A DNA stretch of 32,000 nt from Promethearchaeota archaeon (GCA_030606485.1 JAUWGH010000001.1:360001-392000); one strand, 5' to 3'; counted from the stretch's first letter, positions 18,412-32,000 are shown. Made by a program: numbers and translations. Notes: generated by a model not told the origin, from the letters alone.

Positions 18412-18849
18412 TTAATCATCATTCAGTTCTAAAACTTGAAACCTTGAATATCCCTCTTTACTTAAAGAATAATCTAAATAATCGATTTTTTCAGGAATTA
18501 TCTTCAAAAACATTTTAGCTTTCCTTTTAACAATCTTTCTCGCATGTTCATAATCATCATCCTCAGGATAAATAAACCTTATTTTAGTTGATGTTATTTG
18601 CAATCCTTGAATCTCACCTTCGGACAGTGGAGTATATATTCCTATGCTAGCTATAGGGTTCGCTTTTAGATTTTCTACTTTCGCTCCACCTGCAGGTGTC
18701 ATATATATGTCTAATCCATCATTGTAGAAATCAAGCGGAGTTGCGCGAGGAATATTATTATTGCATGTGCATAAGACTAAAACCTTCCTCTTATTCAAAA
18801 ATTTTAAAATTCTCTCCTTTATATGTTCCTTAGGTAATTCTTTTCCCAT
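18412..18849 (-). CDS. Pyridoxamine 5'-phosphate oxidase-like FMN-binding protein
   Basis: VLCT...PRATP, K..NLKANP and GLQI motifs of the split-barrel family; ATG at 18849. Confidence 0.75.
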   Translation of the reverse strand: MGKELPKEHIKERILKFLNKRKVLVLCTCNNNIPRATPLDFYNDGLDIYMTPAGGAKVENLKANPIASIGIYTPLSEGEIQGLQITSTKIRFIYPEDDDYEHARKIVKRKAKMFLKIIPEKIDYLDYSLSKEGYSRFQVLELNDD

Positions 18850-18993
18850 ATTAACCAATTGGTAATAATACTAGGCTATTTATTAAATATATTCTTAAAA
18901 ATATTTCATTGGTTTATTAAATTAAATAGTAACGAAATTAACTAAACTAAAAATCTATTAAAAAGATTTATTAATAAAAATCGAGATGTATTA

Positions 18994-20366
18994 TTGAACT
19001 TACTGAAAAATTAGTAAATATTTCTAATTTTTTAGTATCACTACGAGTCCACCATCACTTTTACTACGGATAGGGCTGTGTATCGTAGCAAATCCTTTTT
19101 TTGTAGAAAGGATTCCTCGTTCAAGGAGGGTTGATGCGATAGGAATACGTAACAATGCTTATTTTTCAAAAATTTAATCATAATGTTGATCGCAGAATTA
19201 AGATCACGATCAAGATAATTTCCACAATCGCATTGAATAATTCTTTCGGAAAGACTTCTTTTTTTAAGCTTTCCACAAATTGAACATCGTTGAGTAGTAT
19301 ACGATTCGTCAATTCTTATAACTCTTTTCCCTACAAGTCTCGCCTTGTAAGTTAAGAATTCGACAAAACGACCCAACGATCCCGTATTGTTAACAGAATA
19401 GTTTAAAGTTTTGTTAGCTTTATTTTTTTGAGCATTTCCCGTAGATTTTTTCTTTTTAGCCATCTCTTTCACATTTAGGTCTCCGACAATTATTGTATTT
19501 GCTTTGGTATGTGTCACAATCTGTTTTGAAATTTTATGTTGAAAATCACGCATTTGATAAGCACACTTTTGATGCATCTTCCTGAATTTGTGATGATATT
19601 TTCTCCACTTTTTACTATATTTTTTACAGTGGTCTCGCCTTGATTGAATGTTTTCTATTTTCTTTTTCCAATAGAGATCTGCTCTTTTATTTTTAATTTG
19701 AATAAATTTAGAGTGCAAATTCACCGCAGATACAATATTTGAAACTCCTAAATCAATTGCTTGATATAGCCCATTATCTTTGTATCTTGGTGCTTGAACT
19801 TCATATGTAATAGAAATAAACCATCGATTTTGGAAATCCTTAAAAATTTCCACCTGTTTAACCATTCCAACAGCACAATAAGGATATTTAAGAGAAAATA
19901 TTAATGGAATTTTTGAAGGGTGTTTATGCGAAAATTGTATCACTTTCTTTTCTAATTTGAAACCACTCTGATTATAACAGATTGTTGTAAATTTTTTTTT
20001 TGATTTAAATTTAGGTGGTCGAGCTTGTTTATCTCCATTTATCCATTTCGTAAAAAACGATTTATAATCGGAGTTGAGTCTTTTCAATATCATTTGTAAA
20101 ACTTTAGAATAAACCCATATATATTCAGGATATTTCTTTTTAAGTAAAGGTAATTTATTTTGTTGCTCTAAAGAAGATATATATTTTTTGTCGTCTTTTG
20201 GCTTATATTTGTTTTTATTCCAATTTTCTATTCTTTCAGCTAACGCAAAATTATATATTAATCGACATTTTTACGACAAATCCCACAGAATCAGTTCTTG
20301 ATTCTTTGAGGGAAATATTCGAATTTTTTGAGTTAGATTCACAATTATTATTCTATAAAGAATAAT
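18994..20366 (-). mobile_element. Non-autonomous IS200/IS605-family (IS1341-like, tnpB only) element
   Basis: tnpB ORF; right-end hairpin 19001-19037 followed by AGTTCAA (minus strand). The left end is approximate (hairpin ATTATTCT-TTAT-AGAATAAT at 20347-20366). No room for tnpA. Confidence 0.7.
19041..20342 (-). pseudogene. tnpB: TnpB RNA-guided endonuclease, interrupted by an in-frame TAA at codon 24
   Basis: GTG at 20342 is in frame with the ORF-track ATG at 20093. The reading is VNLTQKIRIFPSKNQELILWDLS*KCRLIYNFALAER. RuvC motifs AIDLG, IVGDL, IDESYTTQ and DRDLNSAINI; Zn finger CSIC...CDC. Confidence 0.85.
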
Positions 20367-20527
20367 GACAATTTAACTCGCTTAGGGTTCTAATTTAGAA
20401 AATTTTGCCTAAAAATAAGTATGTTTATATTTAAATACATTTTTAACTATATTCTAATATAATAAAAGTACTTAACACAATGATTTTTATAATTTAATTT
20501 TAAATAGAGATTACAATTAAACTTATA

Positions 20528-20532
20528 AGGTG
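20528..20532 (+). promoter_or_regulatory. Putative Shine-Dalgarno AGGTG for the E2 gene
   Basis: Lies 6 nt upstream of an in-frame ATT at 20539; archaeal SD consensus is GGTGA. Confidence 0.4.
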
Positions 20533-20538
20533 TAAAAA

Positions 20539-21048
20539 ATTAGAGAAGAAACTGATTATGTAGAAGCAATTGAGGCATTTAAAGAAATTAATTTTGTAAT
20601 TATCGAACCTTGGGGAAGATCAATAGATCATTTAAGGCTTACTATAATTGGAAAACCAGGAACTCCATATAATGGGGGTAGATTCTTGTTTGAGATAAAA
20701 ATGCCTGAGAACTATCCTTTTGCACCTCCATATGTTTATGCCCATACTTTAATGTGGCATCCTAATATCGACTCTTCAATTCCACCAGGAAAATTGAATA
20801 TCTGTCTTGATCTTATAAATCCCGATCTTGTAGGTAAGGTTGATGCCTCTACTGGAGCTTCAGGATGGACTCCTTCTAAAACTTTAACAAATATTGTTGA
20901 ATCATTGAAGGGAATAATGCATGTGGAACCACCATTTTTTAATCCTGGCGATCCTTTAAATCATGAAGCGGGAGAACAATATTTTAGACAAAAATCGAAA
21001 TTTGATAAAAAAGCAGAGAGCTGGACAAAGAAATACGCTATGGATTAG
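20539..21048 (+). CDS. Ubiquitin-conjugating enzyme E2 (about 169 aa; start codon non-canonical or damaged)
   Basis: PGTPYNGGRF, YPFAPP, WHPNI, catalytic ICLD, WTP and PLNHEA motifs. The frame is open for 49 codons upstream of the ORF-track TTG (20686) and encodes the conserved E2 N-terminal strands. Confidence 0.9.
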   Translation: MREETDYVEAIEAFKEINFVIIEPWGRSIDHLRLTIIGKPGTPYNGGRFLFEIKMPENYPFAPPYVYAHTLMWHPNIDSSIPPGKLNICLDLINPDLVGKVDASTGASGWTPSKTLTNIVESLKGIMHVEPPFFNPGDPLNHEAGEQYFRQKSKFDKKAESWTKKYAMD

Positions 21049-25106: not shown

Positions 25107-28100
25107 TTATTTTTTCTTTGATTTTTTGGCAGCATCTTTTATCCATTTATGTAGCTCTTTAAGTTCTTCCTTGGTTTTTTGTTTTTCTTTCTCTATTGCT
25201 TTTTGTTCCTTGTCCTCTTCAGCTTTTGCAATTTCTGCTACCAAATTTTGTTTAATTTTAATCATTTTTGTTAACTCTTTTGCAAAACTAGCAGCATCTG
25301 ATTTTATTTGTTCTTTAGTAACAACTTGAATACTTTCTTGTTCTAATCGTTGTTGTCTTAATGATTTGATAATGTCATCTGAAATTGCTGAAATTTCCTT
25401 AACTGATTGTATTTTCATTGTTTCTTCTTCTATTCGACGCTGTTCTTCCAATCCTTTTTGTTTTAATAGTGCCTCTTGAGCTCTTTTAATTTCTTCCTGT
25501 ACTATTATTGCATTTTCTTCTAATTTCTTAGTAGTCTCTATTTCCTTTTCAATATATTTTATCTGTTCAAACCAGCCAATACTTTTAAATTTTTCAACAG
25601 CCTGATCAAATTGTTCGTAAGCAAAATTAAACTGGTGCATTAAAACTGATTTTTTTGCATCATCAAGAAGATTAAAACCCTCTTGTTGAAGTTTTTCTCG
25701 TTGTTCTTGTTCAAATTTAAATGCTTCAAGCTTTATCCGTTGTTCTTCTTGAACTCTTTGAACTTCTAGCTTTTTTCTTAGAATTTCCTGCTTAAATTTC
25801 TCATATTCTTCAGCAGCACGAATTCGAGCCTCTTCTTCTTGTTTTTGTTGAGTGATAAATTTTTGTTTTTCTTCTCTTAAATTTCTGATTAAAGCGTCTA
25901 TATTCGCAATTTCTGGCTCCCAATTTATCTCTAAAAGAACATTTCTTGCTTCTAAATATAACTCAATTGATTTATCAAAATCAGGAGGGAATTCCTTTAA
26001 AAATTTATCAGCATTCTCCAATAAGGTAAATGCAACTTCTCTACGACTTTCTACTTTTTTAATTAATTCTTCTCTTTGCTTTAGAGCCAAATATTTTGCT
26101 CTTTTCATTTCCTCTTCTTGACGTTGACGTTCTTCAATAATTGTTCTAAGCTCGGCTTCTTCTCTTTCTCTCTGGAGTTGGGCTTCCTTTTCTTGTTGTA
26201 TAATTTGTTCTTGTTCTAACTTTCTCATTTGTACTTTTCTGATCATCTCATTGATTGACTCTAAGGGATATTGAATTTCACTTAGAATTAATGAAGCTTT
26301 TAGGTATGTTTCAATTGCTTCATCAAAGTTACCAGTCTTAATAAATTGTTCTGCTTCTTCTAGTACCTTGAATGCTTCGTTTCTTCGTTGTTCAAAACGA
26401 GTTTGTAATTTTTCACGTGATACAATAGCTTTTAACTTCTCCATCATTCTTTCTTGTTCCAATTGAACTTTTTGGGCAATCTCCCCTTCAAGGTACTTTT
26501 CTTCTTCTTCTCTTTGGAGCGCTGCTTCCATTTCTATATGTTTAAGCTGTTCTTGCTCTAATTTTTTATTCTGAACTTTTTTAATCATTTCATTAATTGA
26601 ATCGATAGGATATTGAATCTCGCTAAGAATTAACGTGGCATTTCTATAAGCACTAATCGCTAATTCATATTTTCCGGAGTTGGTTAATCGTTCTGCCTCT
26701 TCTAGCACTCTAAATGCTTCTTCTCTTCTTTGTTCGCGATAATCTTTAATTATTTCTTGTGCTTCAAGCGCAATCTTTTTTGACCTCATTTTTTCTTTCT
26801 CAAGCTTTATATGATAAACAATTTCCCTTTGAAATCCTTCTTCTTCTAATTGTTTCTGAATTTGAATCTCTCTTTCTCTTTGACGTAATTCTTCTTGTTC
26901 CCTTTGTTTTAATTTGATTTTTTGAATCATATCTTTTACAACGTTTGATGGGAATTGAATTTCACTTAAAATTATATCGACTTGACGGTATAGTCTTAAT
27001 GCTTCCTCAAAATTTTCTTCTTTCGTCTTTTCTTTAGCTTTATCTATAATGTCAAATCCTTCCTTACGCCTATTTTCACGATGAGCAAGTAATTCTTCCT
27101 GAGTCTGAATAGCAATTTTTTTTGCTAACATTTTCTGTCTTTCATTCTCAATACTTCGTGCGATTTTTACCTGAAAGTCTCTTTCCTCTGCATCACGTTT
27201 AACTGCTAACTCAATTTGCTGTTGTTTGATTTGTTCAATTTCGAGTTTGCGCTTATTTAAATTATCTAGTGTGTCTTGAATTACTTTTAGATATGGTCCT
27301 TTCCATCCTATTTCATTAAGAATTCTCATAGCAGATATGTGTATTTCAATAGCATCATCTAATTTATCTCTTTTTATATATGTATCTGCAACTTCAAGCA
27401 TTTTTAGCGTTTCATTTTGCCTTAAATAATTTGCTTCTGATAAAACCTTTTGTTGTTCTTGAATATATTGTGCCATTTTTATTTTTTCTGCGTTCATTAC
27501 CTTCATTTGCACAATATTGTATTGAAATTCTCTCGTTTCTTGTTCCCTCCTAAGCGCTTCTTCTCTAGCTTTTTGCTCCAAAAGTTCTCTTTCCTTCTTT
27601 CTCCTTTCAAGTTCCCGAATAGCATTTTGAATATTTCTTAATTCCTCAGTCCATTGAATTTCAGCCAAAATTATTGAAGCCTCGTGATATTTCTCTATAG
27701 CGGCATCAAAATTTCTCTTAATTGTAAACTGTTTTGCTATATCTAAAATATTGAATGCTTCATTCTTTCTTGTTTCTCGATATTCCATTTCTTTTTCATA
27801 TTCTCTAAGCATAATTTCTTTTTCTTTGAGTCTTTTCTCTTCTCTTTTCAATTCTTGAGTAATCTCTTCCTGAAAACGTCGGTATTCAAGCTCTCTCTGA
27901 GTAGCTGCTTCAATTTCTCTCTGTCTCATTTGCTCTTCTTCTATTTTTCTAATGTGAAGTTTTCTAATCATTTCATAAATTGCATCAACTGGATATTGAA
28001 TTTCAGTTAGATAAAGAGCTGCTTTGCGATAAGTTTCAATAGATAAATCTAAGTTTCCTCTTTTTATTAAGAGTTCCGCTTCATCTAATATTTTAAATAC

Positions 28101-31100
28101 TTCATCTCGGCGTTTTTCTCGGTATGCCCTTATATTTTCTTGAGTTTCAATCTCAATTTCCTTCACTATCATCTTCTCTCTCTCAAGTGCTACCTGATGA
28201 GCAATTTCTCTTTGAAATGCCTCTTCTTCTAATTGTCTTTTAATTTGAAGTTCTTTCTCTTTTTGACGTAATTCCACTTGTTCCTTTTGCTTCATCTTGA
28301 TTTTTTGTATCATTTCTCTTACCGCATATGATGGAAATTGAATTTCACTTAATAAAATATCAGCTTGGCGATAAAGCGTTAATGATTCATCAAATTTTCC
28401 AGATTTAGTTAGTTCTTCTGCTTTATCCATAATATCAAATGCTTCCTTACGTCGATTCTCTCGATAAGTAATTAATTCTTCCTGAGTTTGAATATCTATT
28501 TTTTTTACCAGCATCTTCTTCTTTTCAGACTCTATACTTTGAGCAATTTTGGCTTGAAATTCTCTTTCCTCTGCTTCACGTTTAGCTGCTAATTGGATTT
28601 GATGTTGTTTTATTTGTTCAACTTCAAGTTTGCATTGAGTTAAATTATCAAATGTATCTTGGATTACTTTAAGATAAGAACCCTTCCATCCTATCTTATT
28701 AAAAATTTCTACTGCTGACCTATAAATTTCAATAGCATCATCTAATTGACCTCTTTTTATATGAGTATCTGCAACTTCAAGCATTTTCAACGCTTCATTT
28801 TGCTTTTTTAGTTGTTGTTCTGATAAAACCTTTTGCTGTTCTTGTATAAATTGTGCCATTTTTATTTTATCTTCTTCACTCTTTTTCATTATAGAAATTT
28901 TTTGCTGAAATTCTCTTATTTCCTCCTCTTGTTTGAGAGCTGCCTCTCTTAGTTCTAGTTGCCAAAGATCTCTTTCTTTCTTTTTCTTATTAAGCTCACT
29001 AATTGCATTTTGAATGTGTTCTAATTCTTCTGTCCATTGAATTTCTGCTAAAATTATTGAAGATTCATGATATTTCTCAATAGCCGCATCGAAATTTCCC
29101 CTCATTGTTAAAATTTGTGCTGAATCTAAAATATGAAATGCTTCCTCTTTTCTCATTTCCCGATATTTTACTTCTTCTTTAAACTCTCTGATTGCAATTT
29201 CTTTTTCCTTTAATCTTTCCCGCTCCTTTCTTAATGCCTCAGTAATCTCAGTTTGAAATTTCTTTGCTTCTAATTCTCTCCAAATTGCATCTTCTCGAGC
29301 TTTTTGTTCCCAAAACACTCGTTCTTTCTTTTTGTATTCAAGATCGCGAATTGCATTCTGAATAAGAGCTAACTCTTCTGTCCATTGAATCTCAGCTAAA
29401 ATAATCGATATCTTATGATATTTTTCTATAGCTGCATCAAAATCTCCAGCAATAGTCAATTTTTCAGCTTTATCCATAATCTTAAATGCCTCATCCCTCC
29501 TTTTTTCTCGATATTCTTTTTCTTGTTCATATCCCCTAAGTGCAATCTCTTTTTCTCTTAATTTTTCACGCTCTTTTCTTGAAATTTCAGCAATCTTTTC
29601 TTGAAATTCTCTCTCTTCAAGCTCTCGTTTAATTGCTTCTTCTCGAGATTGTTGTTCCCAAAGTTCTCGTTCTTTCTTTCTATTTTCCAGTTGGCGAATT
29701 GTATTTTGAATAAGTGTTAATTCTTCTGTCCATTGTATTTCCGCCAATATTATAGAAGCTTCCCGATATTTCTCAATTGATGCATCAAAATCTCCTCTAA
29801 GTGTTAATAACTTTGCTGAATCTAACACATCAAAAGCTTCCTTTTTTCTATCTTCACGATATTCTACTTCAGCTTCATATTCTATGAGTGCAATTGTCCT
29901 TCTTCTTAATCTCTCACTCTCTCTTCTTAATTCCCAAGCGATTTTATCCCGAAATTCTCTTGATTCTCTCTCCCTTTGGGCTGCCAGTTCAATTTCTCTT
30001 CGTTTAAGTTCCTCTTGTTCAACCTTTTTTAACCGAACCTTTCTAATCAATTCATGAATCGAATCAACAGGATATTGTATTTTACTTAAAAGAAGCACGG
30101 CATTTCGATATGCATTAATTGCCGGCTCAAAATTCCCGATTTTAGTTAAATCCTCCGCCTCATCCAATATCTTAAATGCTTCCTCTCGTTTTTGCTCACG
30201 ATATACTTCTATCTTCTCGCGTGTTTCGATTGCTATCTTCTTCACCATCATCTTCTTTCTCTCAAGTGCTAACTGACGAGTAATCTCTTTTTGAAATGTT
30301 ACCTCCTCTAATTGCCTATGAATTTGAAGTTTTCTTTCTTTCTGTAATAACTCCTTTTGTTCCTTTTGTTTCAATTTAATTTTCTGTATCATTTCTTTAA
30401 CAGCATGTGAGGGAAATTGAATTTCACTTAAAATAATATCAGCTTGACGATAAAGCTCTAAAGCTTCATCAAAATTTCCACGTTTTGTTAAAATCTCCGC
30501 CTTATTCATTACATCAAATGCTTCAGTACGCTTTTTTTCTCGATAAGCAAGTAATCGTTCTTTAGTCTGAGCCGCGATTTTTTTAACAAACATTTTTTTC
30601 TTTTCTAACTCAATATTATGAGTAATTCTTGCTTGAAATTCTCTTTCTTCACCTTCATGTTTAACCGCTAATTCCTTCTGTCGCTGTAGCTCTTGTGTGA
30701 TTTCAATCTTACGTCTATTTAAATTTTCTAGTGTATCTTGGATTACCCTAAGATAAGGGCCTTTCCAGCCAATTTGATTAAAAATTTCTATTGCCGATTT
30801 GTGAATTCTAATAGCCTCATCTAAATTTCCTTCCCTTATATGCTCATCTGAACTCTCGAGCATTTTCAATGCTTCTTCTTGTTTCTTTAATTTCTGCTCT
30901 GATAAGATTTTTTTCTGTTCCTGAATATATTGCGCAAATTTAACTTTCTCTTCTTGCTGACTTTTGATTAAAGCAATTTCATGCTGAAATTCTCTTGCTT
31001 CTTGTTCCCTTTTGATAGATTCCTCTCTTACTATTTGTTCCCACAGTTCTTTATCTTTCTTTTGTTGCTCAAGTTTGCGTATTGCACCTTGAATAAGTGC

Positions 31101-32000
31101 CAACTCTTCTGTCCACCGAATTTCAGCAAAAATAATCGATGCCTCATGATATTTTTCAATCGTAGCATCTAAATCCCCCCTCATTATTAACATCTTTGCT
31201 GCATCTAAAATATCAAAGGCCTCATTTTTTCGATTTTCACGATATTTTACTTCAGCTTCGTATTCTCTTAGTCTAATTTGACCCTCTCTTAACTTTTCAC
31301 GCTCCGTCCTTAATTCTTCAGCAATCATATCCTGAAATTCTTGGGTTTCTTGCTCACGTTTCAATAATACCTCTCGAGTCTTCTGTTCCCATAATTCTCT
31401 TTCCTTTTTTTTATTCTCAAGTTCTCGAATCGCATTCTGAATAAGTGCTAACTCATCATCCCATTGAATTTCTGCAAAAATAATCGAAGCTACTTCATAT
31501 TTTTCTATAATATCATCAAAATCTCCACTGATTGTCAATTTTTGAGCTTCATCTAAGATCTTAAATGCTTTCTCCTTTTGTTTTTCGCGATATTTCACTT
31601 CTTTTTCATATTCTCTAACTGTAATCTCTTTTTCTCTTAACTTCTCACGTTCCTCTCTTAATTGTTCAGAAATTTTATCCTGAAACTCTTTCGTTTCCTT
31701 TTCTCTTTTTAAAGCATCTTCTCTTTCTTTTAATTTTAGAAGTCTCATTTCTTTCTTTCTGTTTTCAAGATCTCGAATAGCACCTTGAATGAGTGATAAT
31801 TCATCAGTCCATTGAATTTCTGCAAAAATCATTAATGCCATGTAATATTTTTCTATGGCAATATCAAAATCCCCGCGTAATGTGTATTCTTCTGCCTCAT
31901 CTAATATTTTAAAAGATTCAACCTTTCTTTTCTTCCGATATTCAATCTCTGTTTCATATTCCCTAATTTCGATCTTTTTCTTCTCTAACTTTTCCCTTTC
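25107..32000 (-). CDS. Giant helical repeat protein (>=2297 aa, 5' end outside the window)
   Basis: The frame stays open from the ORF-track ATG (31841) to base 32000 and continues the repeat (ERE...VESFKILDEAE...GDFDIAIEKYY). 19 TPR/MIT-like units are separated by E/K/R/Q-rich helices; no TM segment is visible. Confidence 0.9.
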   Translation of the reverse strand, partial: EREKLEKKKIEIREYETEIEYRKKRKVESFKILDEAEEYTLRGDFDIAIEKYYMALMIFAEIQWTDELSLIQGAIRDLENRKKEMRLLKLKEREDALKREKETKEFQDKISEQLREEREKLREKEITVREYEKEVKYREKQKEKAFKILDEAQKLTISGDFDDIIEKYEVASIIFAEIQWDDELALIQNAIRELENKKKERELWEQKTREVLLKREQETQEFQDMIAEELRTEREKLREGQIRLREYEAEVKYRENRKNEAFDILDAAKMLIMRGDLDATIEKYHEASIIFAEIRWTEELALIQGAIRKLEQQKKDKELWEQIVREESIKREQEAREFQHEIALIKSQQEEKVKFAQYIQEQKKILSEQKLKKQEEALKMLESSDEHIREGNLDEAIRIHKSAIEIFNQIGWKGPYLRVIQDTLENLNRRKIEITQELQRQKELAVKHEGEEREFQARITHNIELEKKKMFVKKIAAQTKERLLAYREKKRTEAFDVMNKAEILTKRGNFDEALELYRQADIILSEIQFPSHAVKEMIQKIKLKQKEQKELLQKERKLQIHRQLEEVTFQKEITRQLALERKKMMVKKIAIETREKIEVYREQKREEAFKILDEAEDLTKIGNFEPAINAYRNAVLLLSKIQYPVDSIHELIRKVRLKKVEQEELKRREIELAAQRERESREFRDKIAWELRRESERLRRRTIALIEYEAEVEYREDRKKEAFDVLDSAKLLTLRGDFDASIEKYREASIILAEIQWTEELTLIQNTIRQLENRKKERELWEQQSREEAIKRELEEREFQEKIAEISRKEREKLREKEIALRGYEQEKEYREKRRDEAFKIMDKAEKLTIAGDFDAAIEKYHKISIILAEIQWTEELALIQNAIRDLEYKKKERVFWEQKAREDAIWRELEAKKFQTEITEALRKERERLKEKEIAIREFKEEVKYREMRKEEAFHILDSAQILTMRGNFDAAIEKYHESSIILAEIQWTEELEHIQNAISELNKKKKERDLWQLELREAALKQEEEIREFQQKISIMKKSEEDKIKMAQFIQEQQKVLSEQQLKKQNEALKMLEVADTHIKRGQLDDAIEIYRSAVEIFNKIGWKGSYLKVIQDTFDNLTQCKLEVEQIKQHQIQLAAKREAEEREFQAKIAQSIESEKKKMLVKKIDIQTQEELITYRENRRKEAFDIMDKAEELTKSGKFDESLTLYRQADILLSEIQFPSYAVREMIQKIKMKQKEQVELRQKEKELQIKRQLEEEAFQREIAHQVALEREKMIVKEIEIETQENIRAYREKRRDEVFKILDEAELLIKRGNLDLSIETYRKAALYLTEIQYPVDAIYEMIRKLHIRKIEEEQMRQREIEAATQRELEYRRFQEEITQELKREEKRLKEKEIMLREYEKEMEYRETRKNEAFNILDIAKQFTIKRNFDAAIEKYHEASIILAEIQWTEELRNIQNAIRELERRKKERELLEQKAREEALRREQETREFQYNIVQMKVMNAEKIKMAQYIQEQQKVLSEANYLRQNETLKMLEVADTYIKRDKLDDAIEIHISAMRILNEIGWKGPYLKVIQDTLDNLNKRKLEIEQIKQQQIELAVKRDAEERDFQVKIARSIENERQKMLAKKIAIQTQEELLAHRENRRKEGFDIIDKAKEKTKEENFEEALRLYRQVDIILSEIQFPSNVVKDMIQKIKLKQREQEELRQREREIQIQKQLEEEGFQREIVYHIKLEKEKMRSKKIALEAQEIIKDYREQRREEAFRVLEEAERLTNSGKYELAISAYRNATLILSEIQYPIDSINEMIKKVQNKKLEQEQLKHIEMEAALQREEEEKYLEGEIAQKVQLEQERMMEKLKAIVSREKLQTRFEQRRNEAFKVLEEAEQFIKTGNFDEAIETYLKASLILSEIQYPLESINEMIRKVQMRKLEQEQIIQQEKEAQLQREREEAELRTIIEERQRQEEEMKRAKYLALKQREELIKKVESRREVAFTLLENADKFLKEFPPDFDKSIELYLEARNVLLEINWEPEIANIDALIRNLREEKQKFITQQKQEEEARIRAAEEYEKFKQEILRKKLEVQRVQEEQRIKLEAFKFEQEQREKLQQEGFNLLDDAKKSVLMHQFNFAYEQFDQAVEKFKSIGWFEQIKYIEKEIETTKKLEENAIIVQEEIKRAQEALLKQKGLEEQRRIEEETMKIQSVKEISAISDDIIKSLRQQRLEQESIQVVTKEQIKSDAASFAKELTKMIKIKQNLVAEIAKAEEDKEQKAIEKEKQKTKEELKELHKWIKDAAKKSKKK
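25480..32000 (-). repeat. Coding tandem repeat, 342-351 nt period, higher-order period 2079 nt
   Basis: Conserved W/F/Y codon positions: 31809, 31461, 31113, 30765, 30414, 30072, 29730, 29382, 29034, 28686, 28335, 27993, 27651, 27303, 26952, 26610, 26268, 25920, 25572. Confidence 0.9.

Follow-up and report, generated by a model that had tools for sequence, protein, structure and literature searches.

A probably stranded IS200/IS605-type tnpB element with a relocated RuvC-II glutamate in a Promethearchaeia genome

Within a 32,000-nucleotide stretch of the genome of a Promethearchaeota archaeon (GCA_030606485.1, JAUWGH010000001.1:360001-392000; hereafter the window), the minus strand carries a tnpB-only insertion element whose gene starts with a GTG codon and is broken by one nonsense codon (Table 1). 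In profile searches with the read-through translation, in which the stop was entered as X, the encoded protein matched three Pfam domains above their gathering thresholds, namely HTH_OrfB_IS605 (PF12323), OrfB_IS605 (PF01385) and Cas12f1-like_TNB (PF07282), the last of these corresponding to the zinc-finger region (E-value 2e-20). It also scored 208.8 bits, against a cut-off of 100, with the NCBIfam model guided_TnpB (NF040570), over residues 6-389. These models bear out the TnpB that an earlier note, made from the sequence alone, had placed here, and the description of the active site in that note was likewise accurate in residues and coordinates: the aspartate of RuvC-I and that of RuvC-III (Asp197 and Asp380) are both present, the canonical RuvC-II glutamate is replaced by Gly287, and a glutamate, Glu346, is found 59 residues past that glycine, exactly six residues ahead of the C353-x-x-C356 pair of the zinc finger. 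Ordinary TnpBs were said to have a proline at this second position, and Glu346 does align with the proline of SPYFPSSQ in ISDra2 TnpB.

Table 1. Features of the tnpB element, in window coordinates
Feature	Position	Strand	Details
tnpB frame	20342->19041	minus	433 codons and TAG stop, interrupted by one nonsense codon; intact homologues 429-455 aa
RuvC-I catalytic Asp197	19752-19754	minus	motif AIDLGV; D-hydrophobic-G type, not D-P-G
Gly287 (GGA) at canonical RuvC-II Glu position	19482-19484	minus	motif IIVGDL
Relocated Glu346 (GAA, 'Ealt')	19305-19307	minus	motif IDESYTTQRC
RuvC-III catalytic Asp380	19203-19205	minus	motif LDRDLN
Zinc finger C353-x2-C356 ... C371-x-C373	19224-19286	minus	Cys conservation and Pfam
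In-frame TAA, codon 24	20271-20273	minus	single G>T on coding strand (GAA->TAA)
Whole tnpB-only element	18996-20432	minus	1437 bp; empty-site allele and limits of DNA similarity
Candidate omega-RNA (reRNA) scaffold	18995-19155	minus	161 nt; DNA conservation and covariation
Terminal stem-loop of scaffold and right end	19001-19037	minus	hairpin before GTTCA

A search of 5.8 billion proteins yielded 1465 homologues, and conservation was taken from the best 120, all of them intact and 401-496 aa long. Asp197, Glu346 and Asp380 are invariant in 121 homologues, and position 287 is glycine in 120/121. In a set of 80 genome loci plus the window (n=81) that spans Asgard, Euryarchaeota and DPANN, the corresponding counts are 80/81 for Asp197, 79/81 for Gly287, 80/81 for Glu346 and 77/81 for Asp380, and the four zinc-finger cysteines are invariant or nearly so in both sets. 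The residue after the RuvC-I aspartate is leucine in 74/81 and proline in 1/81. Since the glycine and the relocated glutamate are conserved across homologues, the layout cannot be put down to chance in a single sequence; nor is it degenerate, and the protein is thus not the simple dead mutant that the earlier note had named as a competing possibility.

A relocated RuvC-II glutamate has been described before, under several names. The 'TnpB2' class has an alternative glutamate, and TvTnpB is active without collateral cleavage (PMC10530073); the 'RIIr' branches are catalogued clades of rearranged TnpBs, several of them nearly archaea-only (PMC10691335); and the 'Ealt' class is defined by E-x6-CxxC and splits in two, with ordinary TnpBs in a D-hydrophobic-G clade and Fanzors in a D-P-G clade, together with pro-Fanzors, which are cyanobacterial and IS607-linked (PMC10711439). 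The window TnpB fits the E-x6-CxxC definition (E346-S-Y-T-T-Q-R-C353-x-x-C356) and, judged by its motifs, is a member of this already described rearranged class (Ealt/TnpB2/RIIr). The layout had been taken in the earlier note as the signature of Fanzors and their closest TnpBs; it is indeed common to Fanzors and TvTnpB-like TnpBs (PMC10530073, PMC10711439, PMC10691335), but it is not Fanzor-specific.

When aligned by phmmer, Gly287 falls opposite the canonical glutamate of an ISDra2-like nuclease (9yyg), and against the Fanzor2 of a mimivirus (ApmFz2; 9b0l_P) it matches the glycine of ICIGKLNV, with Glu346 opposite Glu467 and Asp380 opposite Asp501. The catalytic triad solved for ApmFz2 comprises Asp324, Glu467 and Asp501 (PMC11832414), of which Glu467 is essential for cleavage, the E467A mutant being inactive (PMC10530073). 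An AlphaFold2 model built on 90 sequences (pLDDT 86.4, pTM 0.76) puts Gly287 on beta-strand 283-288 (beta-4) and Glu346 right after beta-strand 340-345 (beta-5), matching the beta-4 to beta-5 shift of the RuvC-II glutamate that was described by Altae-Tran et al. (PMC10691335). By strand topology and homology to Fanzor2, Glu346 would reach into the active site beside Asp197 and Asp380, and the relocation of the catalytic glutamate, which is the mechanistic half of what the earlier note proposed, is well supported. The best structural match of the model is ISDra2 TnpB (Z 26.7, 351 residues aligned, root-mean-square deviation 3.5, TM 0.66/0.78); the window protein begins at the WED strand and, as modelled, has the WED/REC/RuvC/zinc finger fold of solved TnpBs.

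The ends of the element were located by comparison with other copies and with an unoccupied site. In a four-way DNA alignment that includes two family copies at 81-82% protein identity from unrelated contexts (L005 and L007), similarity begins near 20427 and stops sharply after ...CAGTAAGTTCAAT at 18993. In short contigs of one sequencing run (X2), 18995 is followed at once by a sequence that resembles 20433-20459 more closely than any other part of the window (22/27 identical); these contigs represent an empty-site allele that fixes the element at the limits given in Table 1, +/- 2 nt; the ambiguity of ~2 nt at each boundary comes from AT microhomology. Filled and empty-site alleles coexist in this one cold-seep sample, so that natural populations are polymorphic for the insertion. 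Comparison of the two alleles gives no evident target duplication, with the ends ambiguous by ~2 nt and the left-end hairpin tentative. The two ends are unlike each other; the right end has a conserved hairpin with GTTCA after it. Copies at 95-96% identity (L006, L008 and L104) are syntenic with the window, with DNA 94% identical over 4.2-6.6 kb. Directly upstream of the GTG start there is also a perfect 8-bp inverted repeat (ATTATTCT / AGAATAAT, 4-nt loop; 20347-20366, minus), of which L005 and L007 retain a stem in shifted form, and for which a left-end hairpin and translational control are candidate roles.

In 8/80 family loci (from Thermoplasmata, Borrarchaeum, Methanosarcinales and one Promethearchaeia) a Y1 IS200-type TnpA, encoded by an open reading frame of ~140 aa (PF01797, E ~1e-38), lies directly upstream of tnpB on the same strand. 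This transposase is the sole recurrent neighbour in the 80 loci, among which no serine recombinase recurs. The window element has no Y1 TnpA, and neither does the whole genome (13 contigs, with a completeness of 100% by marker genes); as complete relatives do have one, the window copy is a non-autonomous derivative. It is the single copy of its family in the genome. Two further TnpBs in the same genome belong to a different family (G000:C10:196879-197955, L003, and G000:C12:194432-195514, L004); they are devoid of the Cys4 zinc finger and of the canonical glutamate (IGIGHN and VIGYN, respectively) and have a glutamate in GEPYTSKC and NEDHTSKC, and the second also has one in-frame TAA. All three TnpBs of this genome are thus of the relocated-Glu type. 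The left flank of the window element reads ...TATTTAA and two other insertions are preceded by TTAA, which suggests a TTTAA-like target or transposon-associated motif (TAM); when the left ends of 11 further copies were aligned, the flanks proved too AT-rich to fix the TAM.

The right end of the element looks like an omega-RNA scaffold with its scaffold-guide boundary. This candidate scaffold, which comprises the last ~38 codons (~115 nt) of tnpB and 46 nt past the stop and ends in ...GTTCA, is the most conserved DNA of the element. RNAalifold applied to 21 copies, including those of Thermoplasmata and Borrarchaeum, predicted 34 pairs, 92% of the cells being paired; compensatory double changes occur in 21 of these pairs, as opposed to 7-13 in controls where partners were slid by 1-3 columns. 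Every copy terminates in a hairpin, of unrelated sequence, and then (T/A)AGTTCA, either as (G)TAGTTCA or as AAGTTCA, and the guide is predicted to start at ~18993-18994. In the subgroup of the window the terminal hairpin is long and consists almost wholly of A and U, but it is short and GC-rich in the other subgroups (window vs L014-L082), its structure being kept across subgroups with the sequence completely replaced. No Rfam family matched 18800-20600 at E<=1.

Over 6.6 kb the window is collinear, at 94% identity, with 'Promethearchaeia archaeon isolate ABR01', and the host is a Promethearchaeia (Loki-type Asgard) archaeon, in agreement with the probable Asgard host of the earlier note. Close family members bear the labels Promethearchaeota/Lokiarchaeota, Odin-, Hermod-, Heimdall-, Hod-, Borr-, Wukong- and Sifarchaeota, and at ~50% identity the family extends to Methanoculleus, Thermoplasmata, Methanohalarchaeum and DPANN. 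Runs that contain the window stretch come from eight studies and are metagenomes of cold seeps and marine sediment. The sole 'bacterial' member is found on a scaffold (L085, 83,912 bp) of a metagenome-assembled genome of Sulfuricurvum sp.; IMG/VR lists the same sequence, identical in length and coordinates, as viral (L126, IMGVR_UViG_3300029288_003882, 83,912 bp). Possibly a virus or mobile element was binned by mistake with a bacterial genome here, in which case the family would be purely archaeal.

Codon 24 is glutamate in 118/121 homologues, encoded as GAA, so that the TAA of the window represents a single G>T change. In run X1, probably the source sample, a contig at a depth of ~65 has the plus-strand A at 20273 that makes the stop, with no alternative contig, whereas contigs of X2, X3 and X10, from three other studies and with 2-9 differences in 1501 nt, have a C there, which restores GAA. 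Among contigs of the four runs the stop base is seen only in X1, besides the window itself, and the inactivation thus appears to be very recent and private to one population. One may also consider that the gene is intact in the organism, the TAA being an assembly or sequencing error or being read through. GAA at codon 24 in three near-identical populations would fit such a scenario, as would the rest of the frame, which is clean and 95-96% identical to intact orthologues. Nevertheless, the depth of the X1 contig speaks against it, the change is a simple transversion and not a homopolymer error, and internal stops are found in 12/80 family loci (window included), decay being common in the family. 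There is also no sign of TAA recoding, as the other long open reading frames of the window are normal under table 11. An intact gene is therefore very unlikely, and an error is a less likely cause of the TAA than a recent private inactivation.

We consider it very probable that the window, from a genome of cold-seep or marine sediment, carries a non-autonomous tnpB element of the IS200/IS605 family that was broken recently, belongs to an already known rearranged class and forms no link to Fanzors. In this element the third carboxylate of the D-E-D triad would be contributed by Glu346, at the end of beta-5, beside Asp197 and Asp380, with Gly287 occupying the canonical beta-4 site. The intact form, which persists in near-identical strains elsewhere, would bind an omega RNA derived from its own 3' end (~19155-18995), take the adjacent flank as guide and cut DNA beside a T/A-rich TAM, roughly TTTAA, and such cleavage would bias the retention of the element after TnpA-mediated excision. 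The window copy itself would have been inactivated very recently by the GAA->TAA change, with no Y1 transposase to move it. Together, the nonsense codon and the lack of a genomic Y1 TnpA point to a copy, stranded and decaying, of an archaeal family that is widespread. Several points weigh against this interpretation. The stop is known from one assembly and from contigs of probably the same sample, where an assembly or consensus error is possible, and the empty site is supported by three contigs of just 43-70 nt, in which 27 nt of flank have diverged. There is an uncertainty of ~2 nt in the TAM and in the element ends, the omega RNA is a prediction from sequence covariation, and the reach of Glu346 into the active site is read from Fanzor2 homology and strand topology.

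An alternative explanation is that the family is catalytically dead or exapted, Gly287 reflecting a loss of function and the protein acting as an RNA-guided binder or regulator at a fixed locus. Inactivated and exapted TnpBs have been documented (PMC10691335), and the isolation of the window copy could be read in this way: it is alone in its genome, beside two TnpBs of another type and in the absence of a TnpA, at a locus syntenic with that of its relatives at 94% nucleotide identity. Against this, conservation of the three carboxylates and of the zinc finger extends across phyla, and TvTnpB and ApmFz2, which have this layout too, are active (PMC10530073). Copies of the family are moreover found in many contexts, with multiple copies per genome and some with a Y1 TnpA, the insertion is polymorphic for an empty site, and pseudogenes are as frequent as noted above. 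We regard the dead or exapted scenario as very unlikely.

The earlier note had gone further, counting this protein among the closest prokaryotic relatives of Fanzors and suggesting that an Asgard member bears on where Fanzors came from, in which case it might inform an archaeal (host-side) origin of eukaryotic RNA-guided nucleases. Some observations do agree with this: the Gly/relocated-Glu layout is common with Fanzors, Glu346 falls opposite Glu467 of ApmFz2, the host belongs to the Asgard archaea, and it has been speculated that the archaeal partner as well as the bacterial one brought TnpBs into eukaryotes (PMC10530073). We fetched 11 giant-virus loci with a back-translated ApmFz2 motif and used one of their open reading frames (L096:418-1896), a clear ApmFz2 homologue (E 2e-106), as a query against 1.84 billion representative proteins. 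This retrieved 3369 clusters (at 50% identity) with E<=1e-10 and 340 with E<=1e-30; the top 150 clusters scored at least 146 bits, 138/150 of them have E-x6-CxxC, and most have D-P-G. At the same database size, the best member of the window family reached only 55 bits with this query (E 6.8e-10), behind at least these 3369 clusters, the median being 38 bits, and on that library scale neither the window protein nor its nearest relatives were reported at E<=10. A cluster search with a natural orthologue (P0002) as query found only generic TnpB clusters and did not bear on Fanzor affinity.

The tree and the other features are in line with this distance from Fanzor2. In a quick IQ-TREE of 86 sequences, midpoint-rooted, with long branches and without TvTnpB and Fanzor1, which speaks to separation and not to direction, the window family forms one clade (SH-aLRT 98) that is separated by long branches from a clade of Fanzor2 and its relatives (support 100). 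The main Asgard subclade (support 100) is nested among sequences of Euryarchaeota and DPANN, the family being pan-archaeal. The family is D-L-G and does not have the D-P-G fingerprint (PMC10711439), and its transposase partners are Y1 and not IS607. ApmFz2 matches the AlphaFold2 model less well than ISDra2 TnpB does (Z 20.8), in an alignment that spans only ApmFz2 residues 131-518, from which it follows that the N-terminal extension of Fanzor2 is missing in the window protein, and Fanzor1 (8GKH) is absent both from the phmmer matches and from the 50 listed Foldseek matches. The D-P-G criterion is admittedly not absolute. On the giant-virus contigs from IMG/VR (L088-L098, 83 kb-1.26 Mb) we observed eleven Fanzor2-like open reading frames, up to 628 aa long and several of them cut by the locus end, which combine a RuvC-II glycine and E-x6-CxxC with G-I-D-L-G in RuvC-I, where ApmFz2 has G-I-D-P-G; the published fingerprint is therefore not universal among Fanzor2 relatives. 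Overall, a special closeness of the window TnpB to Fanzors is not supported by sequence comparison or by the model, and a place among their closest prokaryotic relatives is largely refuted and highly improbable. Least probable of all is that the main Asgard clade was an independent archaeal source of some Fanzor1 lineage, with the D-L-G giant-virus proteins as intermediates.

Two other genes of the window may be mentioned. Beside the left end of the element, at 20686-21048 on the plus strand, lies a gene for a 120-aa ubiquitin-conjugating E2-like protein, whose counterpart in L006 (94% identical) is recorded as PF00179 UQ_con. Ubiquitin-conjugating E2 is a eukaryote-signature protein typical of Asgard archaea. 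At the right end of the window there is an open reading frame of at least 2244 aa (25107-31841, minus), possibly open to 32000.

Beyond annotation, the significance of the probably stranded element is small. The relocated-Glu RuvC site has already been described, modelled, solved and mutation-tested (TvTnpB, ApmFz2), and its archaeal branches have been catalogued. A 'Fanzor-type active site in an Asgard genome' is a recurrent pattern that carries low information, and such a label should be used with caution. What the present analysis adds is that one family of this class, widespread in Asgard and other archaea, has an IS200/IS605 (Y1) linkage and no special relation to Fanzors, that it has a well-defined candidate omega-RNA scaffold and right end (...GTTCA), and that intact, nonsense and empty-site alleles occur in cold-seep populations. 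The family may also offer a further compact (~430 aa) nuclease, one that possibly lacks collateral cleavage, for genome-editing screens, in which the natural intact alleles would be a sensible starting point.

Among known systems, ISDra2 TnpB of Deinococcus radiodurans (PDB 8h1j, 8exa, 8bf8) resembles the window TnpB in domain order, in its IS200/IS605 Y1 context and in having an omega RNA with which the gene overlaps at its 3' end. In contrast to the window protein, it has the canonical beta-4 glutamate and a proline where the latter has Glu346, and identity between the two is ~23%. The rearranged TnpBs (TnpB2, Jiang et al. 2023, PMC10530073; Ealt, Yoon et al. 2023, PMC10711439; RIIr, Altae-Tran et al. 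2023, PMC10691335) share with it glycine in place of the canonical glutamate, a glutamate six residues before CxxC, D-hydrophobic-G, a length of ~430 aa and an archaeal host, as well as a Y1 TnpA in complete elements and an omega RNA at the right end, whereas the window copy has no TnpA and carries a nonsense codon. The characterised example of this class is TvTnpB of Thermoplasma volcanium (IS605 Y1 TnpA); the TAM reported for it is NTGAC, while that of the window element appears to be T/A-rich (~TTTAA). Finally, Fanzor2 of Acanthamoeba polyphaga mimivirus (L79, PDB 9b0l) has the same relocated-Glu triad and core fold, but differs from the window TnpB in its D-P-G motif, its structured N-terminal extension of ~130 residues and its IS607 or eukaryotic context.

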